A stretch of 64,000 nucleotides of DNA from an uncultured bacterium (GTDB lineage Bacteria; Babelota; Babeliae; Babelales; Babelaceae). Where the stretch lies: positions 629,110 to 693,109 of the forward strand of contig OY969428.1 in assembly GCA_963699275.1 (NCBI GenBank). Direction: 5' to 3'. Shown here in pieces: positions 5,586 to 43,840 of this stretch; position 1 is the stretch's first letter, and each line of letters begins with the position of its first letter. Position numbers and translations under genes: made by a program. The notes under the pieces are model-generated. The model made no database searches and had not been told where the DNA came from. It saw nothing but the letters and a program-made list of their open reading frames with translations.

Positions 5586-5603
5586 TTCAATAAAAGGCTT
5601 AGT

Positions 5604-6308: not shown

Positions 6309-6449
6309 TGCTCTGATCAGCACAAAATTATATAGCTTTCTAAAAAAGGATATGCTATTCTTACCCATTGACAGGGCCTTGCCTTAGTCAGGCGGGCGGG
6401 AATAGTTTCAAATAACTGGCGGAATGCCACAATCTCTGAAGGGTTTTTT

Positions 6450-6797: not shown

Positions 6798-6816
6798 GCG
6801 TCTATTTAATTGATAA

Positions 6817-8281: not shown

Positions 8282-8478
8282 ACTGAAGAAACCTTTCTTA
8301 TCTAAAAGTATAGCAAATTTTCAATATATTTCACGGAAAAGTTCCCTTTGTCCTCCCTTTTTCCATAAGCTTGCAAACCCATTTCATAGTGTGAGATAAA
8401 TTGAAAAGGATAAGTTTTTTTTAAATATTTGCTTTGCGTTGTACCGGTACATTCTTACATGTGTAAGAGGAAAGTATT

Positions 8479-11216: not shown

Positions 11217-11286
11217 CTCTTCTCTAGCAAACTCATTTCCTTCTATAGTAGTGTAATGGTGGAGATCATTTTTTATTAGGAGAGAG

Positions 11287-23767: not shown

Positions 23768-24004
23768 TGAAATTCCTTTTAGATGTTTTTTATCTCACTA
23801 CAGGAGTGCTGTGAGGGGTTAAATGCATATAAAGTCGTGTTATTTAATTAAGACTTGTCTTTTTCATTCTGCGGATTAATAGTATTTTTTAAATTTAGCG
23901 ATTTGATTTGTAATTTCGAAAGTGGTTTCATTATTTTTCAATGCATAATAATGTTAATGCTACGTTTGCTGAAAATCAAATCACCATAAAACAAAAAGCG
24001 CAGT

Positions 24005-25477: not shown

Positions 25478-25582
25478 CTAGCACACATCCTTATTATGAT
25501 TAGCAAAGACCAGAGTAAAATTATCAAATTATATCAAACCAAGACTTCTTAATTAAGCGTCTATTTTTATTCATCATTAGTA

Positions 25583-25610
25583 AATATATAGACCGCACAA
25601 ATTTTGTCAA
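25583..25610 (-). promoter_or_regulatory. sigma70-like promoter for the 24005..25477 ankyrin gene
   Basis: The minus strand reads TTGACA (25610-25605), a 16-nt spacer, then TATATT (25588-25583). Confidence 0.35.
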
Positions 25611-25800
25611 ATTCATATAGGGTGCTGATAATTTGGAAAGGTCTTAGAATTAAGCATAAAATACTGATTTCTTCATGTTGGGTTACAGGATTGGCGCATT
25701 CAGACTTACGTATATGGTACATTGCCTATTGAGTATTTTCGCTGATTGTTAATGGTATCGGCTAATGATTATGGTTTGTATAGGATGTTTTTTGATCTTG

Positions 25801-27446: not shown

Positions 27447-27642
27447 GACTTACCTTTTTTTAATGAAGTGCTTTCTCTTATTCTTCATCGGTAAATAGCC
27501 TAAAAAAGAAATTGTCACTTGGTGATAGCATCATTTATGTGGCACGGTTTTGCTTAATTAATCGGAAAAATACTTTCTCCACAGAAATAACAATGACTTA
27601 TACTATCCAAAGGCTCAATATTGCCTTTGATTTCTTTTGTTA

Positions 27643-28995
27643 TTAACGCGTGATCTTTCCAAAACTCTTAATCAAATTAACGATAGCGGCATGTCCACGT
27701 TGCCTCGCTATTTCAAGAGCAGTTTCTTTATCCGTATTTTGAGCATTCAGATCAATTGCAGGTACTTTAAGCAGGAGTTGAACAATTTCTGTATGTCCCA
27801 TATCAGCAGCACACATGAGAGGAGTCCATCGATCATTGTCCTGCTGATTAACGTCAATGCTCACTTTTTTAAGTAGGAGTCGAACCATTTCAGTGTGACC
27901 ATGTTTACACGCTATCATAAGAGCAGTAGCACCATCTTCATTTTGTGCATTAATATGGATATGAGCCTTACTAAGAAGGCATTCGGCACTGGCTGTATTT
28001 CCATACTCAGCAGCAATCATTAAAGCACTGATGTCTTGTTCTTCATGAGCATTAATATCGACATCAGGATGATCTATGAGTAATTGTACTATCTCTGAGA
28101 AATCATTTTCGCATGCGAGCATGAGTGCTGTTTGGCCGACATCTTGTTGAACGTTGACATCAATGTCCGGTTCATCAAGAAGCAATTTCACAATTTCTAT
28201 GTGACCTTTTTCGGCAGCGAGCATAAGAGCGGTGTAACCATAGGACTCAACCGCATTAATCTCGATGTCATCCCTGTCAAGAAGTAACTGTACAATTTCT
28301 TGATTGCCCTTTTCAACAGCAACTATGAGTGGCGGTTCTGAGCCTATATTTACATCAATACTGGGCATTGCAAGGAGCAATCGAACGATGTTTATATGTC
28401 CGCCATACAAAGCACAGCTCAGTGCAGATACGCCGGCTCTTTCATCATTGATGTTGATTTTTGGTTGCTTAAGCAGTATTTGAACGATTTCGTAATGACC
28501 ATTCTTGGCAGCTGATATAAGAGCAGTTGTAGTGTCGGGTAGATGGGGAGCATTAACATCAATATCTGGAATGCCAAAAAGCGAATTTACCATTTCTGTA
28601 CGTCCACATTCAGCAGCTATTAAAAGGGCCCTGCAGCAGAGTTGTTGTATGGTTGTATTACCCGATTGTTGCTCAAGTAATTTTTTGATGTCTTGCGCGA
28701 TAGAAATAAAAAATGGTCTCCAATCGGAACTATGACTTGTCTTTTCAAATATAATAGCTTCAAGTATTCGTAACATATACAAGCAAAGTTGCTGATCTTC
28801 CGCCGAAAGTGAGATGAGCTGTTGCGTGAGTGATGATTGACACCTATCGATTTCGGTACTTACCGGTGAAGAATTAACGGTACTTCCAGACTCATTGTGG
28901 TTAGTGTTGCCGAGGGCCTTACGTGTTTGCTCCATGGTTAAAAGGGATGTACTTGCAAACAAACTAGATGTAATAAAAAAAATTTTGAGTTTCAT
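27643..28995 (-). CDS. ankyrin-repeat protein with N-terminal secretion leader
   Basis: Leader MKLKIFFITSSLFASTSLLT then MEQT. About 9 ANK units. Confidence 0.9.
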   Translation of the reverse strand: MKLKIFFITSSLFASTSLLTMEQTRKALGNTNHNESGSTVNSSPVSTEIDRCQSSLTQQLISLSAEDQQLCLYMLRILEAIIFEKTSHSSDWRPFFISIAQDIKKLLEQQSGNTTIQQLCCRALLIAAECGRTEMVNSLFGIPDIDVNAPHLPDTTTALISAAKNGHYEIVQILLKQPKININDERAGVSALSCALYGGHINIVRLLLAMPSIDVNIGSEPPLIVAVEKGNQEIVQLLLDRDDIEINAVESYGYTALMLAAEKGHIEIVKLLLDEPDIDVNVQQDVGQTALMLACENDFSEIVQLLIDHPDVDINAHEEQDISALMIAAEYGNTASAECLLSKAHIHINAQNEDGATALMIACKHGHTEMVRLLLKKVSIDVNQQDNDRWTPLMCAADMGHTEIVQLLLKVPAIDLNAQNTDKETALEIARQRGHAAIVNLIKSFGKITR

Positions 28996-29649: not shown

Positions 29650-31263
29650 TTACCAGGTAAATGTCACGCTGCCCATGTAGGTACCAGATTTGTAGGCATT
29701 GCGTTGGCGCACGGGACCCTGCCAGAGGATACCGATAGCGAGACAATCAAAAAGATCGTAATTGAATGCGACATTGGCAACATCAGCTTCCCACTTGCTA
29801 AAGCATTCCGTACGCTCCACATCGAATCCTGTAGCATAGTAACTGGAATTTTCTGGGATAAATGAACGACAGACCGTGATCTTATCTTGAGCGTGACTTG
29901 TAATACAGTATTCTGCCCAGAATGACAGATTATCTAAAAAGTGGTAAGCGTGTAACCCAAAATTAAAATGCCAGGTAGGTCCTGGACGAATGCTCACATC
30001 TGCAGCATAAGGAAAAATACCACTTTCTGCATAGTTAGTAGGCATGCGGAAATTACAGAAATCCTGTCTAAAAAAGTACGAGAAACCGCCGGCAAAGGTC
30101 AAATCCAGTGTATCAAGAAAATCGATCGTAAACCCGGCTATACCGCCTACATACGTGTGGCCGTTGTTTCCTATAGGTACGGCAAACGGTTTGTTAGCAT
30201 TTATTTCTTTAGAAAGCGGAATTCCCACACCCGCTTCAGCAAATGGCATGAAAACAAGACGGGGATACCGCTCATCATCTTCATTGATAAGAAAGAGGTG
30301 CCGCCAAAAGAGTGAAAGTCGCAAATCATCAAGTCCGACCTTGTGATAATTACAGATATCAAGTCCCAAAATGTCAGCAATCGGGTAAAGATTGTCCATA
30401 ATATTAGTAATTACTGCCTGCTTGCAATCAGCCGTATATCCAAGATTGAGTACTGCGTCGTCGATTGGCATGAAGGGCTGTTTTGGTACGATGCAATCGG
30501 TGGCTCCTGTTGGACTGCACGATGGTTGTGGGCAGGGAGGCACTGTTGTTGGATCAACATAAGGTGGCGCAATTCCAGGTACTGGGGTAAAGGGCAGCGG
30601 GGTTGTTGTTGTGCCGGATAGAGGGCCAACCATAGCGCTTGCAGGGCATGCAGTACCGAGCGCTTGGCACGTAAAATCATTAAATGCATGGACAGTTTGC
30701 CGAACGTCAGAAATTCCCCATCGTGCTCTTAGACCGACAGCATACCAGCATCGATCGATGAGCAAGCATTCACTTTCAAAGCGAACGCCATATTTTTTAT
30801 ATACTGTCGGAATCGAAAAAAAACCGAATTCTTGGTTTTTATCTACATACTGGGGACTGGTGACGTTTAGCAGACAATTAGAATCATCTGAAACTGTAAA
30901 GTCTGCATCGGTAAGACCCAATGCCGTAAACAGAACGGTTTTCAGGGCTGGGTCATAAAAAAGACCGCACATGTTCCAGCGTCCATTAAGGTCACCAATA
31001 TTGACGGCATCGCGTTCACTATTTGAAGCGCAGTTAGCAAATTGATGGTAAGGGCTTACGCTGATTTGGAGGCGATTTAATGCATAGGTATAATCAAAGC
31101 GCATTAAGTTTGCTTTTTGACGGGTAGCCAAATATGAATAGGGATAAACGGTACTGTAAGGCGGTAATTGATCATTGCGTGTAAGGTTTGGAAATCCATT
31201 AAGAGAACTGCTGAGACAAATAACTATTATGCCCTTATAAATCCCCTTCAGTCCCTTACGCAT
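29650..31263 (-). CDS. putative outer-membrane beta-barrel protein, cysteine-rich
   Basis: Signal-like N-terminus, alternating aromatic/hydrophobic beta-strand patterns, and a C-terminus ...GSVTFTW ending in an aromatic residue. About 20 Cys, including a PPCPQPSCSPTGATDC loop. Confidence 0.55.
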   Translation of the reverse strand: MRKGLKGIYKGIIVICLSSSLNGFPNLTRNDQLPPYSTVYPYSYLATRQKANLMRFDYTYALNRLQISVSPYHQFANCASNSERDAVNIGDLNGRWNMCGLFYDPALKTVLFTALGLTDADFTVSDDSNCLLNVTSPQYVDKNQEFGFFSIPTVYKKYGVRFESECLLIDRCWYAVGLRARWGISDVRQTVHAFNDFTCQALGTACPASAMVGPLSGTTTTPLPFTPVPGIAPPYVDPTTVPPCPQPSCSPTGATDCIVPKQPFMPIDDAVLNLGYTADCKQAVITNIMDNLYPIADILGLDICNYHKVGLDDLRLSLFWRHLFLINEDDERYPRLVFMPFAEAGVGIPLSKEINANKPFAVPIGNNGHTYVGGIAGFTIDFLDTLDLTFAGGFSYFFRQDFCNFRMPTNYAESGIFPYAADVSIRPGPTWHFNFGLHAYHFLDNLSFWAEYCITSHAQDKITVCRSFIPENSSYYATGFDVERTECFSKWEADVANVAFNYDLFDCLAIGILWQGPVRQRNAYKSGTYMGSVTFTW

Positions 31264-31655: not shown

Positions 31656-33086
31656 TCATTGCGTTAAGACTGCAAGGCGTGCTTTGACTTCATCCGAGGG
31701 CAGCATAGAGAAGAGATCTTTGATGCTTGGTCCCTGAGGCTTGCCAGTAAGCGCGATGCGGACGAGAGAAAAAATATCTTTGACTGGAACAGACTGTTCT
31801 TTACACAAAGCCTGTAAATGTGTTGCTGCATCATGGGGCTGCATTTCTTCGATAGCGCTCAGCGCAGTTTTTAAAAATGACTGATAAGTTTGAAGGTGGT
31901 AGACATTGAGAAGCTCAATGCTGATCTTGGGTCTTTCAATAATGAAACTCAGCGCTTCCGGGGTATCTTTCAGCGTTACGAGCTCTTGTTGGACGTAGGC
32001 AATGAGCATGGCAAGTTTGTCATCGGGTATGTTTTCAAAGTTCGGATCTACAGCTGTTAAAAAAGGTTTGCACAGCTGTGTTAGTGCTATGGTATCATAA
32101 TGCATAATCCAGTGATGATTTACCCAGCGCAATTTTTCAAGGTCATAACGAATTTGGCCTGTTGCAGAAAGATGATCAAAATTAAACGTTTCTATAAGTT
32201 TTTTCTTATCCATGATTTCTTCTTTGACAGAATGACCAATGATAGAAAGATAATTAACTATTGCCTCAGGCAGATATCCGCTATTTTTTAGATCAGTTAA
32301 TGAAAAACCGAAATCTCGCTTTGACAGCTTTTTTCCTTCGGCATTTCCAATAATAGGCAGATGCCAGAAAACGGGTGTTTCTGCAAGAAATGCCTCATAA
32401 AGGGCAACCTGAGATGCGGTATTTGTCAAATGATCTTCTCCGCGAAATACATGAGTAATTTTCATTTCAACGTCATCAACAAAATTTGCAAATAAGAACG
32501 TGAAGCTGCCATCCTGACGCGTAAGCGGTATGTCAGAAAAGTGCCTCAGTTCAAAATGCATCGCATGATGAGCGAGGTCATAAAAAGAGACGGTTTTTGT
32601 ATCATCGAGGTGAAAACGCCAAATAAAAGGGATAGCTGCAGCCAGCTTTTCCTCAATTTGAGCATCCGTTAGCTTGAGACACGTTCTATCGTACCGCGGT
32701 GGCTGTTTCATCGCCAACTGGCGTTGTCTTCTTTTTTCAAGCTCTTCTGGCGTACAAAAGCAGCGATACACAAGGTGCTTGTCTTGGCAGATCTGTAGGT
32801 ACTTTTTGTAAAATTCAGTTCTTTGCGACTGATAATACGGTGCGTATGGACCGCCTTTAACAGGGCCTTCATCGTAATCAAGACCGAGCCAGGCAAGGTC
32901 TTGCATGATTTGATGACCCTCAGGATCTACCAATCTTTGCTGATCAGTATCTTCAATGCGCAGAATAAAGGTCCCGCTTTTTTGGCGGGCAAACAAAAAA
33001 TTTATAAGGGCTGATCGTACATTGCCTAAGTGCATGAACCCTGTTGGCGAAGGGGCAAAACGTACACGAGGCGCTGGTTTAGTCAT
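31656..33086 (-). CDS. gltX: glutamyl-tRNA synthetase
   Basis: RVRFAPSPTGFMHLGNVRSAL (HIGH), ILRIEDTD and KKLSKRD (KMSKS). Confidence 0.9.
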   Translation of the reverse strand: MTKPAPRVRFAPSPTGFMHLGNVRSALINFLFARQKSGTFILRIEDTDQQRLVDPEGHQIMQDLAWLGLDYDEGPVKGGPYAPYYQSQRTEFYKKYLQICQDKHLVYRCFCTPEELEKRRQRQLAMKQPPRYDRTCLKLTDAQIEEKLAAAIPFIWRFHLDDTKTVSFYDLAHHAMHFELRHFSDIPLTRQDGSFTFLFANFVDDVEMKITHVFRGEDHLTNTASQVALYEAFLAETPVFWHLPIIGNAEGKKLSKRDFGFSLTDLKNSGYLPEAIVNYLSIIGHSVKEEIMDKKKLIETFNFDHLSATGQIRYDLEKLRWVNHHWIMHYDTIALTQLCKPFLTAVDPNFENIPDDKLAMLIAYVQQELVTLKDTPEALSFIIERPKISIELLNVYHLQTYQSFLKTALSAIEEMQPHDAATHLQALCKEQSVPVKDIFSLVRIALTGKPQGPSIKDLFSMLPSDEVKARLAVLTQ

Positions 33087-33226
33087 AGCGGGTCTCTAGT
33101 TGTCTTTCTTGCAAATTTCAGTTTGTTTCCATTATATCATAAAAGGAAAAAAATGTACCATTTGACGAAATAGACATCAAAAAATATCTTAAGATATAAC
33201 ACTAACCATATCGTGCGAGGAACATC

Positions 33227-33727
33227 ATGAAAAAAATTCTCATTCTCGGATTATTGGCTTTTTCTTGGGGCATATACGCTGAAAACAAAGAAGAGCTTTA
33301 TAAAGAAGAACTTATGGGAGCCATAAAAGAGGGTAATGTCGAAAGCGTTACGAGAATTTTAAAGGCAGGTGACGTGCAGAAAAATCATCTGATAGAAGCT
33401 GCTCTCTTTGCTTTGGATAAAACAAGAAACGAATGTTTAATAAAAGTTCAAAATGAAGCCCAGAAGAGTGGTACTGCCCTGATGGCAGCTATGCTAGGAA
33501 TTTCAGTATATATTTTTGGAATTTGCTATGCGAATAAGATTAATTTTTATGAAAGCTTAGCGTTAGCTTTGATGCCGTCTGTGGGAACTCTATTCGCAGC
33601 GGCAATGGTTAATATATTAGAGTTAAATAAGATAACTACTCCTGACCCACATATTAATGCACTCGAGATTGCTCGACTTGTGGCACATTCAGCTCACAAA
33701 CCTGAAGAACCGTCTGAAAATAAATAA
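33227..33727 (+). CDS. P-family member 1: leader + short helical motif + 2 TM + charged tail, unknown function
   Basis: MKKILILGLLAFSWGIYA-ENKEELYKEELMGAIKEGNVESVTRILKAG..., two hydrophobic helices, then ..LEIARLVAHSAHKPEEPSENK. Confidence 0.7.
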   Translation: MKKILILGLLAFSWGIYAENKEELYKEELMGAIKEGNVESVTRILKAGDVQKNHLIEAALFALDKTRNECLIKVQNEAQKSGTALMAAMLGISVYIFGICYANKINFYESLALALMPSVGTLFAAAMVNILELNKITTPDPHINALEIARLVAHSAHKPEEPSENK

Positions 33728-33844
33728 AACATGAGTTCGATATGAGCAGATTTATTAGGAAGATTTTTCAAGATTCTTTTTTGATGAAATAGGGATCAAA
33801 AAATATCTTAGATATAACGCTAACCATATCATACGAGGAACATC

Positions 33845-34351
33845 ATGAAGAAACTTCTCATTCTTGGATTATTGGCTTTTTCTTCCAGCTTATACGCTGA
33901 AAACAACGAAGAGCTTTCTAAAGAAGAACTTATGAGAGCCATAAAAGAGGGTAATGTCGAAAGCGTTACGAGAATTTTAAAGGCGGGGATACAGAAAAGT
34001 GATCTCACCGATGCCGCACATTTTGCTCTTGATAAAATAAAAAACGAAATTGCACTAAGGGCTGCTAACGAAGAGTATAGGCTCGGATCGACCATGTTGT
34101 CGCTCATCTACATATATGGTTCTTATATGTTTTTCATTTGCCGGGCCAATCACATGCAACTGCACGAGAGCTTAGTGATGTCATTTATTCCTGCCGTTGC
34201 TGTCCCATGTCTAGGCCTTTTAGTAAAATGGTTTGGTCTAGATCAACCTACAATAGCTGATCCTCAAGTTAATACGATAGAAATTGCTCGGCTTGTGGCC
34301 CTTTCAGCGTATTCTGCGAAATCATCTGAAAAGCAAGCAGAGCAAAAATAG
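33845..34351 (+). CDS. P-family member 2
   Basis: MKKLLILGLLAFSSSLYA-ENNEELSKEELMRAIKEGNVESVTRILKAG.... The upstream 110 bp or so also duplicates the region upstream of member 1. Confidence 0.7.
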   Translation: MKKLLILGLLAFSSSLYAENNEELSKEELMRAIKEGNVESVTRILKAGIQKSDLTDAAHFALDKIKNEIALRAANEEYRLGSTMLSLIYIYGSYMFFICRANHMQLHESLVMSFIPAVAVPCLGLLVKWFGLDQPTIADPQVNTIEIARLVALSAYSAKSSEKQAEQK

Positions 34352-34474
34352 ATTACATCAAACTCTTTTTTTACCTGGCATGAAATGTTATTATAACCCA
34401 CTAAAAGATGCCGTTTGACGGAAGAGGTCGCAAAAAGTATGATACCATTAGCACTGATCTGTAAGAGGAACAAC

Positions 34475-35002
34475 GTGAAGAACTATATTATCATCGCTTT
34501 TCTAGTCCCCATTTTCACGGGTATCCTGTTTGCTGATCAAAAGCAAGAGCTTATGGATGCAATAAAAAAACGCGACATTAATCAACTTGCAAGGATTTTA
34601 TTGAAAGCAGATCTCATGCAAAAAAGTGATCTAGAGGACGCGCAGCAGTATGCTTTTGATAGACTAAAACATCCGTCAGTAGAGAGAACTCCTTTTGAAT
34701 GGTGCCAAGTTATAGGAGGCCCTACCGTGGGTTTCTGGAGTCTCTATTGGATTTTGACGAAAATGGGACGTTCAAATGGCCCGCTTGTTTGGTTACACCT
34801 GGGTGCTTTGGTTGTATCACCCTTTGTTATGCTTAATGGTTTTTTGGCGCCAATTATACGCTCGACTGCGTCAGAAGTAATTGCTGAATATGTATCAAAA
34901 GCAGCTGATATTGTACGAGAACATCCTGAAAAAGGGAAACAAAGGCTTTTGCTTGAAAAGCTTATATTTGAAGGGACCACTTTTATTAGAGGAACACCAT
35001 GA
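34475..35002 (+). CDS. P-family member 3
   Basis: GTG 34475 is preceded by aagaggaacaac, the same RBS context as members 4 and 5. VKNYIIIAFLVPIFTGILFA-DQKQELMDAIKKRDINQLARILLKAD... Confidence 0.6.
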   Translation: MKNYIIIAFLVPIFTGILFADQKQELMDAIKKRDINQLARILLKADLMQKSDLEDAQQYAFDRLKHPSVERTPFEWCQVIGGPTVGFWSLYWILTKMGRSNGPLVWLHLGALVVSPFVMLNGFLAPIIRSTASEVIAEYVSKAADIVREHPEKGKQRLLLEKLIFEGTTFIRGTP

Positions 35003-35526
35003 ACAACTATCTTCTTATTGTGTCTTTTGCTTGTGTTTTTACAAGTGCTCTGTTTGCGGATAAGAGAGATGAACTTATCAGTTCAATAAAACGGGGCGAT
35101 GTAGAAAAAGTAACAAGAATTTTAAGAAAGGCTGATCAAATTCAGAAAAATGACCTCGAGGAAGCAGCTGAATATGCTCTCGACCGAACAAAATCGCCAT
35201 CCTTATCTCGGACTGGATGGGAATGGACGAAGGCTATTGCTGGTGGTTTGTTCTTACCAACCAGTCTGCTTAGTTGGCACTGGTTCACCGGGGGACCATT
35301 TAGAGATGATTCTCCTAATTGGTTTGATGTGGGACATGCTATGTTTGCGGCTTTATGTGCGTATCTGCTTTACTCCGGGATAAGCACACCAATCAAGCGC
35401 TATGCTGGTGCGAAAGAAATTGCTCACCTGGTAGGAAATGCAGCTGAAAAAACTGGAGAAAAATCTGAAAATGCAGGCGAGCAATCAGCTCCGCGAAAAA
35501 GATTAATAATCGATGACGAAGATTGA
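34999..35526 (+). CDS. P-family member 4
   Basis: MNNYLLIVSFACVFTSALFA-DKRDELISSIKRGDVEKVTRILRKAD.... ATGA overlap with member 3. Confidence 0.7.
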   Translation: MNNYLLIVSFACVFTSALFADKRDELISSIKRGDVEKVTRILRKADQIQKNDLEEAAEYALDRTKSPSLSRTGWEWTKAIAGGLFLPTSLLSWHWFTGGPFRDDSPNWFDVGHAMFAALCAYLLYSGISTPIKRYAGAKEIAHLVGNAAEKTGEKSENAGEQSAPRKRLIIDDED

Positions 35527-35549
35527 GTCTTTATTAAAGAGGAACAACC

Positions 35550-36077
35550 ATGAATAAATATTTTCTTATTGGGTCTTTTGCTTTCACAAGTATTTTGTTT
35601 GCGGATAAGCGAGATGAACTTATCAGTGGAATAAAAAAAGGTGACGTAGAAAAAGTCACAAGAATATTAAGAAAGGCCGATCAAATCCAGAAAAATGACC
35701 TCGAGGAAGCAGCTGAATATGCTCTCGATCGAACAAAATCGCCATCCTTATCTCGGACTGGATGGGAATGGACGAAGACTATTGCTGGTGGGTTGTTCTT
35801 ATCAACCAATTTGATTAGTTGGTACGTGAGGTTCACCCACGAAGAATTCAGAAATGTCCCTTTTCCTAATTTGCATGATGGGGTGCATATTGTCTGGACA
35901 TCTTTATGGGCGTATCTGCTTTACTCCGGGATAAGTGAACCATACAAGCGCTATGCTGGTGCGAAAGAAATTGCACGCCTGGTAGGAAATGTAGCTAAAA
36001 AAACTGATCAAAAATCCCAAAATGCAGGTGAGCAACCAGCTCCACGAAAAAGATTAATAATCGATGACGAGGATTGA
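35550..36077 (+). CDS. P-family member 5 (recent duplicate of member 4)
   Basis: The first 80 aa or so and the last 45 aa or so are nearly identical to member 4 (...KNDLEEAAEYALDRTKSPSLSRTGWEWTK...; ...RKRLIIDDED). Confidence 0.7.
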   Translation: MNKYFLIGSFAFTSILFADKRDELISGIKKGDVEKVTRILRKADQIQKNDLEEAAEYALDRTKSPSLSRTGWEWTKTIAGGLFLSTNLISWYVRFTHEEFRNVPFPNLHDGVHIVWTSLWAYLLYSGISEPYKRYAGAKEIARLVGNVAKKTDQKSQNAGEQPAPRKRLIIDDED

Positions 36078-36229
36078 TTTTCATTTTATTTAAAAGAATG
36101 AAAAGCATAGCGAATACGCTTTTCAGCCCTTTTTTTATTTTAAATTTCGAAAAGATTAGTTGTATGATTTGATGAGAGAAATAACAAAAATAGTATAACG
36201 ATATATTTCTTCAAGGCATTTAAAGGAGC

Positions 36230-36682
36230 ATGATGATTAATCGTTTATTTATTGGTTTACTAGTTTTCATCTCTACAGGCTGCATTTTTGCTGATCAAGA
36301 GGATCGGCATGTGGGAGGTATAGACAAAAATGAAGACCTAATGACTGCCATAAAAAAAAGGGATGTTCGAGAAGTTAAAAGAATTTTGGCGGATGTCGAT
36401 GCTATGCAGACAAAGGATTTAGAAACTGCTTTTGAGTATGCTTCTTCCCGCATGAAACAAAGTTCACAACGTAAGTGGTGGGAATGGTTTTTGATTATAT
36501 ATTGTGGTGTACACTTATTTAAAAGAGATGGTGCTAACTACTGGCATATTTTGAATACTATTTTTGCGACGCTAGGAATGTGTTACGGGATAATCGGTCC
36601 TTTTAATCGGCAGGCAGCAGCAGAAAAAATTACTCGGCTTTTGCTGACAAAGTGCCGCGAGAAAAATGTGGAAATCCAGTAA
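36230..36682 (+). CDS. P-family member 6 (divergent)
   Basis: Leader ...FISTGCIFA-DQEDR.., DLMTAIKKRDVREVKRILADVDAMQTKDLETAFEYA, one or two TM segments, AEKITRLLL tail. Confidence 0.6.
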   Translation: MMINRLFIGLLVFISTGCIFADQEDRHVGGIDKNEDLMTAIKKRDVREVKRILADVDAMQTKDLETAFEYASSRMKQSSQRKWWEWFLIIYCGVHLFKRDGANYWHILNTIFATLGMCYGIIGPFNRQAAAEKITRLLLTKCREKNVEIQ

Positions 36683-36716
36683 AATAGTACTTCCCATAAA
36701 GAAAAATAATTCATCG

Positions 36717-37307
36717 ATGAGGAAAGATTTGAAAACCCTAACGATAATACCTATGTACTTGGTTATTTTTGGAAGTGTTAGTTTGCATGCTGACAAAGCA
36801 CAGAATGCACTCATGCGAGATGCTATTGAGACGTCTGATGTGTTAGCAGTCAGGGGACTTCTGAAAAAAGTAGAGCCTCTTAAAACCGCAGATAAGACTT
36901 CCTGGATCAAATTTGCAGATGATGTCATTGGGGAAAAAAGAGAGTTAACATCTCTTCTTAAGAGCCCACGTGATCTTATACGGTTTCTGTTTGGAGCAAC
37001 CGTTACCGTAAGCTGCACAGGACTTGCCGGCTTTTTTTTCAGACGCTACCTTAGGTGCCCGCTAAACTCGGGGGTGGACCCTGAAGAAAGAAGAACAAAT
37101 TTAGTCTATAGTGGTCTTTCTGCAGGTGTAGTAATACTGGGTGTTATCGCAATGGTCAAGGGTTGGTATTGTGATACTGCATATGCCAATGTAAAACTTG
37201 CTCGCCTAGCGAAAGAAGCTATCGAAAAAGCTCTTGTGGAAGGAGCTACTGGTACTCCTCAGTTAGCACAAAAAGATATTCGATCTTCAGACAAAAAAGA
37301 TCAGTGA
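36717..37307 (+). CDS. P-family member 7 (most divergent)
   Basis: MRKDLKTLTIIPMYLVIFGSVSLHA-DKAQNALMRDAIETSDVLAVRGLLKK.., two TM segments, VKLARLAKEAIEKAL tail. Confidence 0.55.
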   Translation: MRKDLKTLTIIPMYLVIFGSVSLHADKAQNALMRDAIETSDVLAVRGLLKKVEPLKTADKTSWIKFADDVIGEKRELTSLLKSPRDLIRFLFGATVTVSCTGLAGFFFRRYLRCPLNSGVDPEERRTNLVYSGLSAGVVILGVIAMVKGWYCDTAYANVKLARLAKEAIEKALVEGATGTPQLAQKDIRSSDKKDQ

Positions 37308-37412
37308 TTTTTTTTCTTATTGACAAATTGCTCAATTAGAATATGCTAGGAGCCTAGGTACCTATGTGGTCCTGTTTTGTTATATATCAGTAGTTATACA
37401 TTCGAGGTTTTC

Positions 37413-38302
37413 ATGAAAAACATTATAGTAAAGATTTTGTTTTCTGCTCTCGTGTTACTTCCCTCAGTGAAGGCGATGCAGCAGTCACAAACTTCAGCAA
37501 ATAGTCGCAGACAACGGCGCAATCGTCTGATCAGCAAAACAATGCAGTATTGCAGCAAATGCTTGTTGCTTCTATGGATCAGTCCCACATGCAAGCTATT
37601 TTAACGAGTATGGCTGAGATATCGAAGGCGATTCTTGCTCGTATTGAGAAAGAAAAACAGGAAGAATTGGCAAAGGCCAATGAAAAATATCAAGCGGCAT
37701 TTGTGTGCGCGTTTCAGAACAGTGAGTCGACGCAAGAGGAAAAAGAGATTGCCTTGGAATATATAGCATTTTCCGCTCGCTTAATACCGGCAATAGCTGA
37801 TTATTATGCGAAGAAAGCTACTTTAGAGAAAGTGGCTGAAGAAGTACAATGGCGTGCTATTTCTGCCTTACAATGGCAGATTTCAAAAGTTGATCTGCCT
37901 GGGGAATGTTGTGTAGCTCCGTATCGTGAAATGACCCATGAAGACTATCTCAAAGAGCGTATAAGATGTGAGAAAATTTTGGCTTCTCGACCGACTGCTG
38001 ATGACGTTGGAATAGCGGCACTGTGTTGGATTGCGAATGAAGGAAATTGGGCAACTCAGCAAAAAAAGGATGCCGCTACAAACCTGCAGGCCGCAAATGC
38101 GACGATCGAAGCGACAGTTCTCTCGCCTCAAATGGCAGCTCTGAAAGCACAATATACAAAAAGAAAGCGCATGTTAACTTCCTATTTAGGCAGTTATTTC
38201 TTTTCTCAAGAAACGCGTTCGCAAGCAGCTTTAGAGTTTTACGAAATAAGTAAGGCAGAAAAAAAGCTCGCCCAATCACAGAGTCAGCCGGCTGCTCAAT
38301 AA
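37413..38302 (+). pseudogene. Q-family member 1 (exported coiled-coil protein) with a frame break after the leader
   Basis: The leader MKNIIVKILFSALVLLPSVKA-MQQSQTSAN.. (frame of ORF 37377..37604) runs into a stop. The homologous body (..NNAVLQQMLVASMDQSHMQAILTSMAEISKAILARIEKEK..) is in the -1 frame (ORF 37550..38302), which is closed by TAG just upstream of about 37505. Confidence 0.65.
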
Positions 38303-38367
38303 CTAATTTGTATTTACAAAGAATTCTTAATCAAATGACAAAAATACTCAGATACTATGAGGTTCTT

Positions 38368-39498
38368 ATGAAAAACATTTCAATCAAGATCATCTTGCTT
38401 GGTCTTGCATTCAGTACTTCAACAAAAGCAATGCAATCATCATCACAAGCTTCAGCTGACTCCATGACTGCGGAGCATACGACAACTACTGAAAACTTAG
38501 TTGGAGCATTTAATGCTCAAATAAACGCACTAACAGAACGATTTCATTCGGAAAAAAGATTCTTGGAAGCTGCGCAAGGGGACGAACGTGTGGCACGATT
38601 GGCCTTTATTCAAACTTTACAAACGGAGCTTAGTGATCTTGTCGATAGACGTGATGCACAACGAGCGGCTGGCGCAGGTCTGCGGCCTTCAAATGGACAG
38701 GCAGCGCAATCTTCTACCCAGCCTCAAGAAACGGTACAAAACGCTCTCTTAGCTTCTATGCAAAAATCACAGGTGCATGGAAGAATTTTAGAATGTATGG
38801 CTGAGTTAGCTAAGAAAATTGTTGCTCGCTTTTCGAAAGAAAGGGATGCAGAAATGGAAAAGGCTAGAATGCAAAATGAACAAGCTCTGCAAGTTCTTAA
38901 AAACAGTGAGTCGACGCCAGAGCAAAAAGAACTTGCTATTGAGCAGATAGAGTTTTTAGGGCGTTTGATGCCTGCGATAGCTGATTACTATGCAAAAGCT
39001 GCAGCCTTAGATAATATATTTACTGAAGTTCGCTGGCGAACGATTTCAGGTCTCCAGCGCGCAGCAGCTGAGGCTGGTCAGCCACCGAAACAATGTGTGG
39101 GTGGTTCTGAAACAGTTATGACCCATGAGGATTATTTAAGTTCACGTGCTAGATATGAAAAAATTCTTGATGATCTTCAGGCATCTGATCTACTTAAACA
39201 GGACACCATTTTATCCTGGTATTGGACTGAAAAGAGATGGGAAGGGCAGCAAAGAAAAAATGCTGCTAACGAAGTGAAAGCCAATAATGCTGCAACCGAG
39301 AAAACAGAAACACCGGTTCTTACTCAAGTAGCAAGCCAAAAAGCTGAATATATGAAGAAGCAGCATACTCTAGCTCTTTATATAGGCTGTTATTTCTTTA
39401 CTGAGGAAGTACGTGTGAAAGCGGCTTTGGATTTCTATCAGATTGAAAAAGAAATAAGACGACTTGTGCATCCAAGTACTCAGTCAGCTTCGCATTAA
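38368..39498 (+). CDS. Q-family member 2
   Basis: MKNISIKIILLGLAFSTSTKA-MQSSS... Shared blocks ILECMAELAKKIVARFSKERDAEMEKA, NSESTPEQKELAIEQIEFLGRLMPAIADYYAK and AALDFYQIEKE. Confidence 0.7.
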   Translation: MKNISIKIILLGLAFSTSTKAMQSSSQASADSMTAEHTTTTENLVGAFNAQINALTERFHSEKRFLEAAQGDERVARLAFIQTLQTELSDLVDRRDAQRAAGAGLRPSNGQAAQSSTQPQETVQNALLASMQKSQVHGRILECMAELAKKIVARFSKERDAEMEKARMQNEQALQVLKNSESTPEQKELAIEQIEFLGRLMPAIADYYAKAAALDNIFTEVRWRTISGLQRAAAEAGQPPKQCVGGSETVMTHEDYLSSRARYEKILDDLQASDLLKQDTILSWYWTEKRWEGQQRKNAANEVKANNAATEKTETPVLTQVASQKAEYMKKQHTLALYIGCYFFTEEVRVKAALDFYQIEKEIRRLVHPSTQSASH

Positions 39499-39513
39499 TT
39501 AATTTTTTAGAGG

Positions 39514-39558
39514 GCTCTCTTGGATATTATCAAGATATTTCCAAGAGAGCTCTTTTTT
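39514..39558 (+). terminator. rho-independent terminator
   Basis: An 11-bp perfect stem gctctcttgga / tccaagagagc (39514-39524 / 39540-39550), then tctttttt. Confidence 0.7.
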
Positions 39559-39624
39559 GTTTAAATTAGTTTTGAATCTTAGAGGATTCCATCTTTAGAA
39601 GGCTTTTATAAAACGGAGGTTTTT

Positions 39625-40473
39625 ATGAATATTTCGCAGAGAGCAGTAGTTATGTGCTTGCTTGTTACTTTATTTTCTTCGGTAATGGCGATGCAGCAAG
39701 AGGAACGTAATATTCAGTGCTATGAACAAATTCTAACCAGACTGCCTCCTTCTCAAAAAATGTTACACATTATGGCGCGTATAGCCGAAGCGATTTTTGC
39801 TCGCGCTGAGAAAGAAAGGCGAGCAGAGATGCTTAAAGTGCGAACAGAGTTGGACAGTGCTTTGAAGGTTCTTCGAAGCAGCCTATCATCACAACAGGAA
39901 AAAGAACAGGCAAGCGAGACGGTTGAATTTTTAAATAGACTTTCAGGTGAGATCTCGGTCCATTTTGCAAAAAAGACCGCAACTCAGGCTGTGCTTGAAG
40001 AGGCTTCGGGCAGGGCTCTTTTTGCCCTAAATGATGCCGTTGAAAGAGTAAGTGCTGATGAGCCTCATGACGACACCCCGCGGGAAGAATTTAAATTAGG
40101 ACATTATCAAGATGATCTGAATCGAGCGCTTAGTATTCTTAATGATGCAGAGAGTCCTCTTAAAGAAAAACGGAATGTTGCGAGGGTATGGTATTTCAAT
40201 GAGCTTCGTTGGGCAGAGCAACAAAGCAAGAAGAACACAGAAAAAGCACAGCAAGATGCGCCAGTAGCTCAGATAGACAATAAAAAAGTTCCGATCCTCT
40301 CGCCAGAACAAGCAGCGCAGAAAGCCGAATATGAAAAAACAAAGCGTATCGCAGTGAAGTATATACACTGTAATTATTTTAGTGAAGACGTGCGCTATCA
40401 AGCAGCGCTTGATTTCTATCTTGCAGACAAAGCCGAAAAAGATCTTACAGCTTTTCAGTCCACCACATCCTAA
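39625..40473 (+). CDS. Q-family member 3
   Basis: MNISQRAVVMCLLVTLFSSVMA-MQQEE... Shared blocks MARIAEAIFARAEKERRAEMLK, SSQQEKEQASETVEFLNRL and AALDFYLADKAEKDL. Confidence 0.7.
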   Translation: MNISQRAVVMCLLVTLFSSVMAMQQEERNIQCYEQILTRLPPSQKMLHIMARIAEAIFARAEKERRAEMLKVRTELDSALKVLRSSLSSQQEKEQASETVEFLNRLSGEISVHFAKKTATQAVLEEASGRALFALNDAVERVSADEPHDDTPREEFKLGHYQDDLNRALSILNDAESPLKEKRNVARVWYFNELRWAEQQSKKNTEKAQQDAPVAQIDNKKVPILSPEQAAQKAEYEKTKRIAVKYIHCNYFSEDVRYQAALDFYLADKAEKDLTAFQSTTS

Positions 40474-40531: not shown

Positions 40532-40625
40532 GGCACCATTTGCGCTTACCTGTAATAGAGAGTAATCTAGTACTATCTCTTTTTTTAAGAGTACACTATT
40601 TGGGAATGTGATTCGGGGGAACACC

Positions 40626-42137
40626 ATGAATATAAGTCAGAAATCAGTTCTGGCTTTCGTAACGTTTATGCCACTTCTGCTCAATGCAGCAGGAGAGGCA
40701 TTCTTGGAAGGCCGCATTCGTACGGCAATTGCGGAACGTCAATCGAGAATTAATAGTCCAATTTCAGGCGAGCGGGTTGCGCAAAGAGCCATTGAACAGC
40801 GACTGAGATCTCCAGAAGAGTGCATACGTGAAGCTGTCGAATTGCGCGAGACAATCAGGTTTGCCCATGAAATTGCTCATGATCCTGCAAACAATCCACA
40901 AGCTCTTATCGCCTCAGTGAATGCTGAGCAGGCAGAATATGAGCGCAGAGAGCGTGAGGAACTTGAAGCATCAATTAAATGGAGAAATACCCTTCTTACC
41001 CCATTCGAAATTAATGGCTATACGGTGCCTGTTGGATTTTATAAGAGAGATCTTATAGAATTACCCATTTATGGGGTCCAATTGTATGCACGTAAGCTTC
41101 TTAGAACATCGCTTAAACAACGCCGTGAAGAAACTATCATTAAGCATATTACTGAAGGCGCATATAATTCGCTCATCGAAATTCTCGAATCGGTAAAGAA
41201 AGCCGAAGAAAAATATGAGCTTGAGTATGAAGAAAAAAGTGCGCTTGGAAAGTTATTTACTGTTGATTCACGCGCACGAGATGTTCTTTTGAATCCTATA
41301 CGTGAGTACCTTTACGAGAACCACTATCTTATCGGTTATCTGCCCATTAATACCATGGTTTTATTTCCGTTACTCTCATGCTGGCTTTTTGATAAGACGA
41401 GCTCCTGGCTTGAATCGACGCTCTTAGAGAAGGATTATGATGAGATTTTTCGCAGGGGTGGGGTTCAAGCTTTGAACATGGAATATCTTGAAGCCTTTCA
41501 ACCAAATGCTGAAGGGCAACTAATAAAGGCTGAAAAGACGCCATTTACACTAACAACGAGCTTGCGATTTTGCGAATGGCTGTTATCTTTTTCGTATTTT
41601 CATAAGCTGCCAAGCACCATGAATTTACGAGTATTTTTATTATGGCTTTGGGGTATTCCAGCGCCTCTTTTTAATGACGCAAAAATTTTCAAGACTATGA
41701 GTCAGCTCGCAGGAGTAAAGTTACCTGATGCATTCTACTCGAAGCCGGTTGAGTTGGCTATCGAATATTTAGGTTATGGATTTTCCGCGAAACTTTTTGA
41801 TAGACAATGCGGTGAAACGTGGACGAAATACGTTTTGGAGAACCGTGAAAAATTTCTCACACGCTTAAAAAATTATAAACGTGCAGTAGAGCAACTTGAT
41901 AATGCTGAGGTCGCTGTTAAAGAAGCTGAGCGAAAATTGAGAAAATTTGTGGAAAATGGCCACCGCATGAATTCATGGTTGCCGGGTGCTGAGGCAAGGC
42001 AGTGGTGGAAGTCGGAATCTCGTGGATCCACTACAATAACGAATGCGGTCAGCCTTGGCTTGACGGGTATAATGGCATATAAGTTGGCCCGATGGTATTG
42101 GAATATAACGCATCCGCGAGCTGAGCATCCAGCTTAA
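40626..42137 (+). CDS. large exported/membrane protein, unknown function
   Basis: Start is taken at MNISQKSVLAFVTFMPLLLNA (same MNISQ leader type as Q3). A charged helical region is followed by several hydrophobic segments and a C-terminal TM segment (AVSLGLTGIMAYKLARWYW). Confidence 0.6.
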   Translation: MNISQKSVLAFVTFMPLLLNAAGEAFLEGRIRTAIAERQSRINSPISGERVAQRAIEQRLRSPEECIREAVELRETIRFAHEIAHDPANNPQALIASVNAEQAEYERREREELEASIKWRNTLLTPFEINGYTVPVGFYKRDLIELPIYGVQLYARKLLRTSLKQRREETIIKHITEGAYNSLIEILESVKKAEEKYELEYEEKSALGKLFTVDSRARDVLLNPIREYLYENHYLIGYLPINTMVLFPLLSCWLFDKTSSWLESTLLEKDYDEIFRRGGVQALNMEYLEAFQPNAEGQLIKAEKTPFTLTTSLRFCEWLLSFSYFHKLPSTMNLRVFLLWLWGIPAPLFNDAKIFKTMSQLAGVKLPDAFYSKPVELAIEYLGYGFSAKLFDRQCGETWTKYVLENREKFLTRLKNYKRAVEQLDNAEVAVKEAERKLRKFVENGHRMNSWLPGAEARQWWKSESRGSTTITNAVSLGLTGIMAYKLARWYWNITHPRAEHPA

Positions 42138-42169
42138 TGTCAAGACAAAAACCTTAGAGGAGAACCTAT

Positions 42170-43840
42170 ATGATGGATAAAATAGTTACAAGAGGTCTAA
42201 AGGCGGTATTCTATCTATCCTTTTTACAGGGGGCTGTGCAGCTTTACTCTATGGAGGCGGCTCGAGGAGCACTTCCAGGAGCAGCTAACCCGAATGATCC
42301 TAATCGACCGCAGGTTGGGGAACACATTGCACAAGTTTATAACGTAGTCGAGCCAGCCATTCGGAACAACATAAATGCGATGGTTCTTGGTGAGCGTGAA
42401 GCATTGCAAAATGCACTTGATGCTGTGAATATCTCCTTAGCTAATGCTCGTGGAGTGGAACGAGAGAGATTATTAGCACGACGTGCTCAATTGGAAGATC
42501 AGCTTTTTGCCGTTGCAAGGCGACACGGAGGTCTTTTGGAGAATGCCCATCAAGCTGCTGTAAATATCGGAGCAGAATATGCTAGGTTCATTTTGGATAG
42601 AGGGAGAGAAGAATTTTCACGGCAAACGCAGTTTGGTAATACAGCTATTAACGCTCGTGAAAATCGTGCTGGAATGGTGCAAGCAAGCAGAGATCGTTTT
42701 GCCGATATTACTAATTGGGTTCGAGGTAATCCGAAATATATTTTGGGCATGACTGCAGGACTGACCATAGCAAGCTATGGTACCTATAAAGGGCTGCAGA
42801 TTGCGGCACATCGTTTTGAAAAGGAAACCCCACGTCTTGCGCAAGAAACATCGCTCCTTTCTACTAAAGAACAGATGCTTAATTGGTTAACGGGTAAACC
42901 ACAAAAAGAAGCAAATATAAAAGATGTGATTTTGCCTGAGGAAGATGAAAGGCGCGTGGAGGAGATCGTTGCAGCAATGCAATACTCCGTTCAAAATGGT
43001 GCCTATCTTAAAAATGGACTTTTCTGGGGACCTCCAGGAACTGGTAAAACTTTCTTGCTTGAAAGAATTGCTCGTAGTAGTGGCATGGATTATCTCTTAG
43101 TTGCAGGTCCCGATGCATTTGCCTATAGTGTGGAAGAAGGAATTATAGAGTGGAATAAAGTATTTGATCGAGCTGAAAACCATCCTAGACCAGTTATGAT
43201 TGTTATCGACGAATGCGAAGTTATCTTAGGTGACAGAAAAGACCCTGCCAATCAATCTGATAAGAAGCAGGCTTACCTCAATTTAATTTTAACGCGTTTT
43301 GGAACAGAAAATCGTAAACGCTGCGTGTTTGCTATCTGTAACCTTCCTGAGCGCCTTGATGAAGCATTTTTAAGCCGGTGCGATATTCAGATGTATGTAG
43401 GAGTCCCAGCGGTTCCTCAGCGTAAGCAGTTAATTAAGAAATATTTCACGAAATATCTTATTAAAGCAGAACACTTGGTGCATGAGGTTGTGGCCACAGT
43501 TACTGGATTCTTTAACAATCTTTTCTCATCGCCACCACCGCCTCCTACGCCACTTAAGTTCGAACAAGGCTTACTCAAAGATAATGAGATGAGTCCTCAG
43601 TTGATTGATGAAATCAGCGACAAACTTGAAGGACATGACTTTGTGGGACGTGATATTTCAAAGATGATGTTAATGATAGAAAGTACCGCGCACTCAACGA
43701 AGGACTCGATGGTTACTCGAGCTATTATTGATCGCGTGATAAAGACCAAGATTCACGAGAAACGTGTTGCTCGAGAAGGCTTTAAACGGGCACCATCGCA
43801 GGCAGATAAGAAGCCAACGCAGACATCTGCCGCAGCATAA
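42170..43840 (+). CDS. membrane-anchored AAA+ ATPase with ATAD3-like architecture
   Basis: N-terminal leader ..AVQLYS-MEAARG, then a helical region and a TM segment (YILGMTAGLTIASYGTY). Next come ETPRLAQETS, Walker A GLFWGPPGTGKTF, SGMDYLLVAGPD, Walker B VMIVIDECE, and the ..ICNLPERLDEAFLSRCD.. block. Confidence 0.75.
   Translation: MMDKIVTRGLKAVFYLSFLQGAVQLYSMEAARGALPGAANPNDPNRPQVGEHIAQVYNVVEPAIRNNINAMVLGEREALQNALDAVNISLANARGVERERLLARRAQLEDQLFAVARRHGGLLENAHQAAVNIGAEYARFILDRGREEFSRQTQFGNTAINARENRAGMVQASRDRFADITNWVRGNPKYILGMTAGLTIASYGTYKGLQIAAHRFEKETPRLAQETSLLSTKEQMLNWLTGKPQKEANIKDVILPEEDERRVEEIVAAMQYSVQNGAYLKNGLFWGPPGTGKTFLLERIARSSGMDYLLVAGPDAFAYSVEEGIIEWNKVFDRAENHPRPVMIVIDECEVILGDRKDPANQSDKKQAYLNLILTRFGTENRKRCVFAICNLPERLDEAFLSRCDIQMYVGVPAVPQRKQLIKKYFTKYLIKAEHLVHEVVATVTGFFNNLFSSPPPPPTPLKFEQGLLKDNEMSPQLIDEISDKLEGHDFVGRDISKMMLMIESTAHSTKDSMVTRAIIDRVIKTKIHEKRVAREGFKRAPSQADKKPTQTSAAA

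Follow-up and report, generated by a model that had tools for sequence, protein, structure and literature searches.

A tandem array of seven small leader-bearing genes that join an ankyrin-like motif to a hydrophobic helical hairpin, from a bacterium most likely of the Dependentiae

The stretch of bacterial DNA analysed here (the window, 64 kb) carries at 33227-37307, on the plus strand, seven consecutive open reading frames (ORFs) that encode small proteins of one family. An earlier note on this DNA had described the array, and all seven ORFs are found where it placed them (Table 1). Across the locus, a gene for a 537-amino-acid (aa) protein and gltX on the minus strand are followed on the plus strand by the array, a family of three paralogues, a gene for a protein of ~500 aa, an AAA ATPase gene and bamA. 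The protein sizes, between 150 and 196 aa, rest on the start codons of the database proteins P0001 (GTG 34475, member 3) and P0002 (ATG 36717, member 7). The start given for member 3 in the ORF listing, TTG 34415, was rejected; it coincides with the -35 box of a repeated promoter-like element, and for this reason the start is placed at GTG 34475, as in P0001. All seven copies are intact. They match a hidden Markov model (HMM) of the family at E 4e-30 to 2e-46, scores far beyond chance that establish the array as real, and scanning the 64-kb window with this model yields no eighth copy. Horizontal acquisition of the array was considered and rejected, since its GC content of 0.39-0.41 matches that of the window (about 0.41) and the locus is syntenic in relatives.

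Alignment with MAFFT, hydropathy and AlphaFold modelling agree on a common layout in all seven proteins, the one proposed earlier: a leader, a helical motif, two hydrophobic helices, an amphipathic helix and a charged tail. The leaders of members 1 to 7 end in IYA-E, LYA-E, LFA-D (three times), IFA-D and LHA-D, respectively. Judged by eye, they comprise a lysine-rich n-region beginning MKK or MNN and an h-region of 12-15 residues, with Ala at -1 in seven of seven, Ile or Leu at -3 and Asp or Glu at +1; A-x-A-like leader sites occur in many homologues. Downstream of the leader, the alignment displays the motif ELM.AIK.GDVE.VTRIL.KAD..QK.DLE.A..YALD and the (E)IARLV segment, and it also contains the terminal RKRLIIDDED that members 4 and 5 had been said to have in common.

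The two hydrophobic helices differ in strength between members. By Kyte-Doolittle hydropathy, the leader and two later hydrophobic segments are apparent in members 1, 2 and 7; members 3, 4 and 6 pass the cut-off at the second segment only, and member 5 at none. In member 1 both helices are strong, at about 84-100 and 112-128. The pair of hydrophobic helices that had been claimed for every member stands as a feature of the layout, but members 3-6 have a first helix of no more than marginal hydrophobicity, rich in Trp, Gly and Pro. The amphipathic helix containing (E)IARLV is likewise present, but its amphipathicity is moderate (hydrophobic moment, muH, 0.34-0.64). Loop lengths between the hydrophobic helices range from 4 to 22 aa among the window members and from 4 to 38 aa over a 26-sequence family alignment. 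The helices of the hairpin are rich in Gly and aromatic residues and flank a hypervariable loop, and helix B continues into a basic, moderately amphipathic helix followed by a low-complexity charged tail. Mean column conservation over 26 homologues is 0.44 in the head and 0.49 in the stretch preceding helix A, as against 0.18 in the loop and 0.21 in the tail.

An AlphaFold2 model of member 4, computed from the 26-sequence alignment, has a predicted local distance difference test score (pLDDT) of 88.9 and a predicted template-modelling score (pTM) of 0.69. Its helices span residues 4-18 (leader), 22-32, 35-43 and 50-65 (head), 73-98 (helix A) and 108-160, the last being a long helix in which helix B is continuous with the EIARLV helix. 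The predicted fold, confidently modelled, is a three-helix head of ~45 residues placed on a helical hairpin, and the first two head helices follow the ankyrin-repeat consensus. Foldseek searches with this model give no significant match in the PDB (best E 0.22, template-modelling score, TM-score, <=0.33) or in BFVD (best E 0.16, TM-scores up to about 0.44). The top matches, ExbB and the alpha-pore toxins AhlB/SmhB, were rejected as generic likenesses between helical hairpins.

The resemblance of the conserved motif to a single ankyrin-type helix pair, suggested in the earlier note, is borne out by profile comparison and by register. In a search of 1.84 billion proteins, positions ~21-65 of the seven-member profile find between 4 and 10 matching stretches in each ankyrin-repeat protein, the best E being 1.7e-10. 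Leaving P0036 aside, the matches outside the family comprise ten proteins that are ankyrin-repeat by Pfam and six more by sequence. In an hhalign alignment, DKRDELISSIKRGDVEKVTRILRKAD is placed on DGATALMIACKHGHTEMVRLLLKKVS, the start of a Pfam-defined repeat in an ankyrin protein of the window itself; the register of the motif also coincides with the ankyrin domain of KAT1, and the helix-turn-helix consensus ..L..A...G....V..LL..G/A.. is present in register. None of the Pfam ankyrin models (PF00023, PF12796, PF13606, PF13637 and PF13857) matches above its gathering threshold: the best score, from Ank_5, is E 0.092 in one of the seven members, and the other six have no ankyrin match at E<=1. 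An N-domain profile of the wider family, compared with the ankyrin proteins of the window, gives E 0.018 among 80 ORFs, which is not significant. Stacked repeats or a solenoid are absent from the AlphaFold model, which has space for only one to one and a half repeats. On these three grounds the family is not filed among the ankyrin-repeat proteins; it is ankyrin-like, and may have derived from a leader-bearing ankyrin protein or have converged on the motif.

Searches of Pfam, NCBIfam, PADLOC, PHROGs, PDB sequences and Foldseek all end without a significant match, in line with the earlier statement that no known family is recognisable. The best PADLOC match has E 0.044 and the best PHROGs match E 0.003, each for one member, the latter to a family of unknown function. 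Pfam S_4TM is reached at a non-significant E of 0.15, and neither PF05433 (Rick_17kDa_Anti) nor Gly-zipper or holin families occur among the Pfam matches at E<=1. A profile search of PDB sequences returns sub-threshold matches only, to ankyrin segments and to a single-pass subunit of complex I. In the literature searched, no description of the family was found.

Beyond the window, an exhaustive profile search of 1.84 billion representatives retrieves 44 proteins at E<=1e-3, six of them from the same genome. About 25 of these 44 are full-length homologues of 150-212 aa (one of 273 aa) with the same layout, and nearly all the others are ankyrin-repeat proteins. A word-indexed protein search with seven- and 28-member alignments, insufficiently sensitive for this family, returned only proteins of the genome itself and one from the related locus L003. 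A back-translated pattern scan found no match in genome contigs (alignment A2) and re-found only the contig of locus L005 in a metagenome collection (alignment A6). An exact look-up of member 1 matched no contig, and several homologues lie on contigs too short for gene context. In the wider family, the leader is followed by the consensus L..AIE.SDV..VKKLLRR.G.L...DKK.LLE.AE.....R...SL.KS.WDL.K...GG and then by helix A; past the variable loop, helix B ends in G.Y...KG..C..A and leads into ..R...ARKI...IKKA.

The gltX product of the window is 72% identical to that of a Candidatus Dependentiae metagenome-assembled genome (MAG), 68% and 61% identical to those of two complete MAG chromosomes of uncultured bacteria, and 61-69% identical to those of other loci with the gltX/bamA neighbourhood. 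Sequence relationships thus place the source lineage most likely in Candidatus Dependentiae (TM6), and the organism probably lives as a parasite inside protists. The GC content of the window and its five canonical ankyrin-repeat proteins agree with this placement. The family is kept across genomes whose gltX is only 61-73% identical. In related genomes it occupies a conserved slot: its genes diverge from gltX, and the ~500-aa gene, the AAA ATPase gene and bamA lie downstream of them. Copy number, which the earlier note had proposed to survey, varies from 0 to 7. The window, with seven copies, is followed by L003 with 5-6, L005 with five (one apparently frameshifted), and L002 and L007 with one each; at least five stand in tandem on the 2.2-kb contig L011 and at least two in L009, and the most distant locus, L004, has none. 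The family is therefore small and fast-evolving, with one conserved anchor copy and birth-and-death expansion, and it belongs to the Dependentiae wherever the source is identifiable.

Three observations in the related loci concern the architecture of the family and its turnover. In L003, the members at 5626-6807 (-) and 7385-8431 (-) are 393 and 348 aa long and carry an insert of ~200-225 aa, rich in Lys, Arg and Glu and coiled-coil-like, between the hydrophobic helices, from which it follows that the hairpin loop tolerates a whole extra domain. In L005, the fifth copy (11282-11767, +) fits the family profile over positions 1-106 only, beyond which its sequence is ...GKVLSGSRYIWRPRACWCLLCAERLLL; a frameshifted pseudogene or an error in the MAG is the probable explanation, in agreement with birth-and-death turnover. 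In L004, a gene just downstream of bamA (5496-6281, -) encodes a 261-aa protein that has a leader and canonical ankyrin repeats and ends with a hydrophobic helix at the C-terminus. The protein is not matched by the family HMM; its leader-ankyrin-membrane-anchor architecture is of a kind from which the family could derive.

Analysis of substitutions reveals that the array is constrained. By the Nei-Gojobori method, the pairwise ratio of nonsynonymous to synonymous substitution rates (dN/dS, omega) is 0.17-0.62 wherever it can be estimated, every value being below 1; dS is saturated for five member pairs, four of which include member 7. The seven ORFs are thus under constraint and not decaying, and decay of the ORFs, an outcome that the earlier note said would speak against its description, is not seen in the window. 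For the pair 4/5 the overall dN/dS is 0.51, and it is unevenly distributed: the N-domain (codons 21-75) has dN 0.028 and dS 0.316 (omega 0.09), the hairpin and loop (codons 76-130) have dN 0.313 and dS 0.225 (omega about 1.4), and the tail has dN 0.079 and dS 0.216 (omega 0.37). Members 1 and 2, which had been described as recent duplicates, are not simply that. They are 52% identical in amino acid sequence, with near-identity confined to the promoter and the first ~210 nt of the gene, and dS is 0.23-0.42 in the 5' part against >=1.75 further 3', a contrast that partial gene conversion explains better than a recent whole-gene duplication. In an all-against-all BLAST comparison, members 1-6 find their best matches in each other, and member 7 finds its best matches in genes of other genomes (L002a, L007a and L005c/d). 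Member 7, orthologous to single-copy genes in related genomes, is accordingly taken as the ancestral copy and members 1-6 as a lineage-specific expansion, which arose by local duplication and partial gene conversion and is still under selection.

A 31-nucleotide (nt) upstream element, direct-repeat family D6, has three copies with promoter-like sites (Table 1); these sites are consensus matches only, and the region has no excess of such sites over shuffled sequence. Duplication of the DNA upstream of members 1 and 2, as claimed before, is confirmed: 33161-33191 and 33780-33810 are 90% identical, the adjoining direct repeat D3 (33192-33369 and 33810-33987) is 92% identical, and the duplicated block extends ~140 nt into the coding sequence. 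The ribosome-binding context GAGGAACA(N)C, attributed to members 3-5, does occur there, but it is not limited to them, as members 1-2 have it too. Good ribosome-binding sites precede members 1-6, and member 7 has no obvious Shine-Dalgarno sequence. Only one of 200 shuffled sequences folds as well as the terminator-like hairpin that follows member 5. From these sequence features, the likely transcription units are [1], [2], [3-4-5] and [6-7].

Table 1. Coordinates of the array members, flanking genes and putative regulatory features in the window
Feature	Coordinates	Strand	Description
Promoter-like element, copy 1	33161..33191	+	TTGACG-17-TATCTT at 33162-33190; sigma-70-like 9/12; before member 1
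Member 1	33227..33727	+	166 aa; leader ..GIYA|E; ankyrin-like motif; EIARLV helix; acidic tail; HMM E 5e-33
Promoter-like element, copy 2	33780..33810	+	90% identity to copy 1; before member 2
Member 2	33845..34351	+	168 aa; 5' third near-identical to member 1, remainder diverged; HMM E 2e-33
Promoter-like element, copy 3	34414..34444	+	TTGACG-17-TATGAT at 34415-34443; 71%; 10/12; before member 3
Member 3	34475..35002	+	175 aa; GTG start; GAGGAACAAC precedes start; HMM E 2e-37
Member 4	34999..35526	+	175 aa; 4-nt overlap with member 3 stop; AlphaFold-modelled
Member 5	35550..36077	+	175 aa; 79% identical to member 4; begins 23 nt past member 4
Terminator-like hairpin and U run	36099..36140	+	after member 5; folding free energy (dG) -10.9 kcal/mol, z -3.1
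Member 6	36230..36682	+	150 aa; AAGGAG ribosome-binding site; HMM E 4e-30
Member 7	36717..37307	+	196 aa; SLLKSPRDL...KGWYCDTAY..KLARLAKEAIEKA; HMM E 7e-46
gltX (glutamyl-tRNA synthetase)	31656..33086	-	divergent conserved anchor of the locus
~500-aa partner gene	40608..42137	+	leader, helical, C-terminal hydrophobic helix
AAA ATPase	42170..43840	+	556 aa; CDC48/FtsH-type AAA domain at 284-411; leader-like N-terminus

Among the neighbouring genes, the one for the ~500-aa protein is a conserved partner of the family. It adjoins a family member in L002, L003, L005 and L007 (tblastn) and in L006 (blastp), and in L003 the family member and the ~500-aa gene have moved to the other side of bamA, still paired and with a 4-nt overlap. 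The ~500-aa protein has no Pfam or NCBIfam match, and an AlphaFold model from a two-sequence alignment is unusable (pLDDT 37.5). The AAA ATPase gene is also the downstream neighbour in L002 and L005. The ~500-aa protein and the AAA ATPase (40608-43840), upstream of bamA, may form an undescribed envelope module. Between member 7 and the ~500-aa gene, at 37377-40473 (+), lie three tandem paralogues that are 35-44% identical and have helical bodies and leaders ending ..KAMQ(Q/S)S or ..MAMQQE; with no Pfam or NCBIfam match and no homologue in the related loci, this family looks like an insertion specific to the lineage of the window. The first of the three is split (37413-38302, +), its leader MKNIIVKILFSALVLLPSVKAMQQSQTSANS... 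and its body ..SQTTAQSSDQQNNAVLQQMLVASM... lying in different frames that switch near 37500, and represents a frameshifted pseudogene or an assembly error.

On the other side of the array, the 537-aa leader-bearing protein (29650-31263, -) ends in ..GSVTFTW, an aromatic C-terminus that is outer-membrane-barrel-like. It stands beside gltX in L002-L005, at 40-63% identity, and has no Pfam or NCBIfam match. Five canonical ankyrin-repeat proteins are encoded at 22766-28995 (-) and 53628-55859 (+), four of them in a row 4-10 kb upstream of the array; the leaders of four of the five end in ..FTME, ..LTME or ..CAMS, a pattern reported for candidate effectors of Dependentiae. Elsewhere in the window, a 319-aa ORF (17020-17979, -) matches the ATP synthase subunit c model at three stretches and adjoins subunit a, and is possibly a c-subunit gene that has been triplicated or fused, an arrangement that would be unusual in a bacterial F-type ATPase. 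Additionally, a 361-aa ORF at 1168-2253 (+) has a Cas12f1-like TNB domain and is a TnpB-type transposon-associated nuclease.

The interpretation that we favour, tentatively and at somewhat less than an even chance, is that the family consists of Sec-inserted envelope proteins, in which a periplasmic ankyrin-like head, tethered to the membrane, would bind either the ~500-aa partner or exported clients. The leader would take the N-terminus, and with it the head, across the inner membrane via Sec; helix A would then stop transfer and helix B re-initiate it, so that the head and the C-terminal helix come to face the periplasm together and the variable loop lies in the cytoplasm. In this position the head could act as a membrane-anchored protein-binding adaptor for the ~500-aa protein, possibly for the AAA ATPase, or for the very large Sec-exported secretome of these bacteria, and the copies produced by duplication would come to differ in their specificity for clients or partners. 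Members 1, 2 and 7 have strongly hydrophobic helices, hydrophobic enough for stop-transfer segments, which fits this arrangement, and so does the fact that the ancestral copy is tightly linked to further envelope genes with leaders. A loop that does not have to cross any membrane would most easily accommodate the charged inserts of ~200-225 aa in L003. Moreover, Dependentiae are reported to possess Sec and type II secretion only, without type III or IV, and type II is the sole system for secretion that was found in Babela (PMC4378268, PMC4776705); this reported absence also fits an envelope location.

Several points weigh against it. In members 3-6 helix A is marginal and may fail to arrest in the inner membrane; a crude Hessa-scale hydrophobicity sum cannot settle whether the helices do arrest there. 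The density of Lys plus Arg shows no positive-inside bias for a cytoplasmic loop: it is 0.15 in the loop, against 0.20 ahead of helix A and 0.16 past helix B. The leaders appear to be of Sec type, but their cleavage and the orientation of the proteins are assigned by rule of thumb, and an uncleaved signal anchor is possible. General synteny between genomes that are fairly close could account in part for the linkage to the ~500-aa gene and the AAA ATPase gene. The family shows tandem expansion, turnover in copy number and one segment with omega above 1, as host-interaction genes typically do, and leader-bearing ankyrin proteins of the phylum are usually read as secreted host effectors (PMC6561590, PMC4378268).

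These last points lead to the main rival explanation, attractive but less probable: the proteins may be host-directed membrane effectors, functionally analogous to the chlamydial Inc proteins, exported by Sec and then by type II secretion or outer-membrane vesicles. The hairpin would enter a host membrane (that of a vacuole or an organelle), the head and the basic C-terminal helix would face host proteins, and pressure from the host would make the copies diverge. The lineage is obligately intracellular, its ankyrin proteins mostly carry signal peptides and are read as effectors (78% in Chromulinavorax, 79 of 126 in Babela), and similar leaders are present on four of the five canonical ankyrin proteins of the window. 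Small size, two closely spaced hydrophobic helices, tandem arrays and lineage specificity point the same way, and so do the omega of about 1.4 in the hairpin of pair 4/5 and the turnover in copy number; the marginal hydrophobicity of most members would help them to escape arrest in the inner membrane, and vesicle budding has been reported for C. destructans. However, no route is known by which a Sec-exported alpha-helical hairpin could pass the outer membrane and enter a host membrane with both termini in the host cytosol. Inc proteins need type III secretion, which Dependentiae reportedly lack along with type IV, and they have no cleavable leader. The inserts of two L003 members could not cross a membrane spontaneously, the most conserved copy is tightly linked to envelope genes (the ~500-aa gene, the AAA ATPase gene and bamA), and Pfam and Foldseek detect no sequence or fold similarity to Inc or other effector families. 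A more specific version, rather less probable still, has the family as a type-III-independent counterpart of Inc: Sec-exported hairpins would travel via type II secretion or outer-membrane vesicles and reach the host vacuole's membrane or that of recruited mitochondria, a minimal head with a single ankyrin-like unit would be shown there to host factors, and the tandem copies would diverge under an arms race against the protist host.

Other explanations carry little probability. It is improbable that the proteins protect the cell from itself, in the manner of immunity proteins, as membrane-tethered periplasmic ankyrin-like inhibitors of its own exported hydrolases, for which Bdellovibrio Bd3460 offers a precedent. 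The combination of leader and ankyrin-like motif would suit that role, as would a tandem array of diversifying small genes, which is typical of immunity clusters, and the large secretome of a cultured relative is rich in proteases and nucleases; yet the match to Bd3460 (5cea_A) is weak and non-significant (E 0.61) and covers mainly the leader region (profile positions 2-48), one degenerate repeat is far less than the multi-repeat surface that Bd3460 uses, the loci examined contain no gene for a toxin or hydrolase within the array or next to it, and PADLOC gives no match. We give a similarly small chance to oligomeric channels or membrane-perturbing proteins, whose Gly-rich helices (GVIYGILGVAGVYFAVKG, GxxxG, glycine-zipper-like) would form a pore in a bacterial or host membrane under regulation by the head. 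Small-xxx-small and glycine-zipper-like patterns do occur in both helices of many homologues, but the Gly pattern is largely lost in members 3-6, and conservation along the protein is lowest in the hairpin, which would be unexpected for a pore lining. The top Foldseek matches are helical membrane oligomers and alpha pore-forming toxins (ExbB, AhlB/SmhB), but all structural matches have E >0.1 and TM-score <=0.33, and Pfam reports neither a glycine-zipper nor a holin match. That the ORFs are non-functional remnants, spurious or decaying after repeated duplication, is very improbable: the apparently frameshift-truncated L005 copy at 11282-11767 and the lack of an obvious Shine-Dalgarno sequence before member 7 are set against seven intact copies, dN/dS below 1 with an omega of 0.09 in the N-domain of pair 4/5, homologues kept across genomes, conserved upstream elements, the good ribosome-binding sites of members 1-6 and a confident AlphaFold fold. 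A small remainder of probability belongs to readings outside those considered here.

Dependentiae, a poorly known phylum, are widespread parasites of protists that have almost never been cultured. The family provides a tractable marker for their comparative genomics and shows an ankyrin-like repeat pared down to one unit that is joined to a membrane hairpin. Proteins kept in the envelope, as we favour, would point to an undescribed envelope module beside bamA, in which a family member is combined with the ~500-aa protein and a membrane AAA ATPase; proteins that instead reach host membranes would show the way in which a bacterium lacking type III and IV secretion decorates a host compartment.

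Several known systems share part of this design. Lineage-specific expansions of membrane proteins are common in intracellular bacteria. The chlamydial Inc proteins resemble the family in being small, confined to obligate intracellular bacteria, encoded in tandem clusters, fast-evolving, lineage-restricted and without an enzymatic domain, and the bilobed hydrophobic domain that marks them, two helices joined by a short loop, is present in the family. They differ in carrying an uncleaved type III signal in place of what appears in the family to be a Sec-type leader, and their hairpin lies near the N-terminus, whereas that of the family follows a folded head and its loop takes inserts of ~200 aa; no type III genes occur in the 64-kb window. 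Bdellovibrio Bd3460 is a leader- or anchor-bearing ankyrin protein that works in the periplasm by binding other proteins, as proposed here for the family, and Pseudomonas aeruginosa AnkB, a membrane-anchored or periplasmic ankyrin protein, may be likened to it as well. Unlike the family, both have several Pfam-detected repeats and lack a C-terminal hairpin, and they are not known to form tandem arrays. Small envelope proteins of the Gly-zipper type (PF05433, Rick_17kDa_Anti), found in intracellular bacteria among others, combine a leader with a Gly-rich two-helix hairpin; these two-transmembrane-helix proteins are lipoproteins and, unlike the family, are not known to have an ankyrin-like head or a basic C-terminal helix.

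A further likeness lies within the phylum itself. The ankyrin proteins of Babela massiliensis and Chromulinavorax destructans have a Sec-type leader, as the family appears to, followed in both cases by the L..A...G....V..LL.. consensus, and like the family they are multi-copy, lineage-specific and often clustered (PMC4378268, PMC6561590). Ankyrin proteins of Dependentiae stack 4-20 repeats, whereas the family has only one to one and a half, in degenerate form, and canonical ankyrin effectors are without the hairpin and the basic C-terminal helix, both of which the family possesses. Two of its ingredients, the Sec leader with an ankyrin motif and the tandem expansion of paralogues, are thus already known from Dependentiae, and what is new is the architecture, in which a single degenerate ankyrin-like repeat sits on a membrane hairpin of two helices, together with the conserved partner gene.

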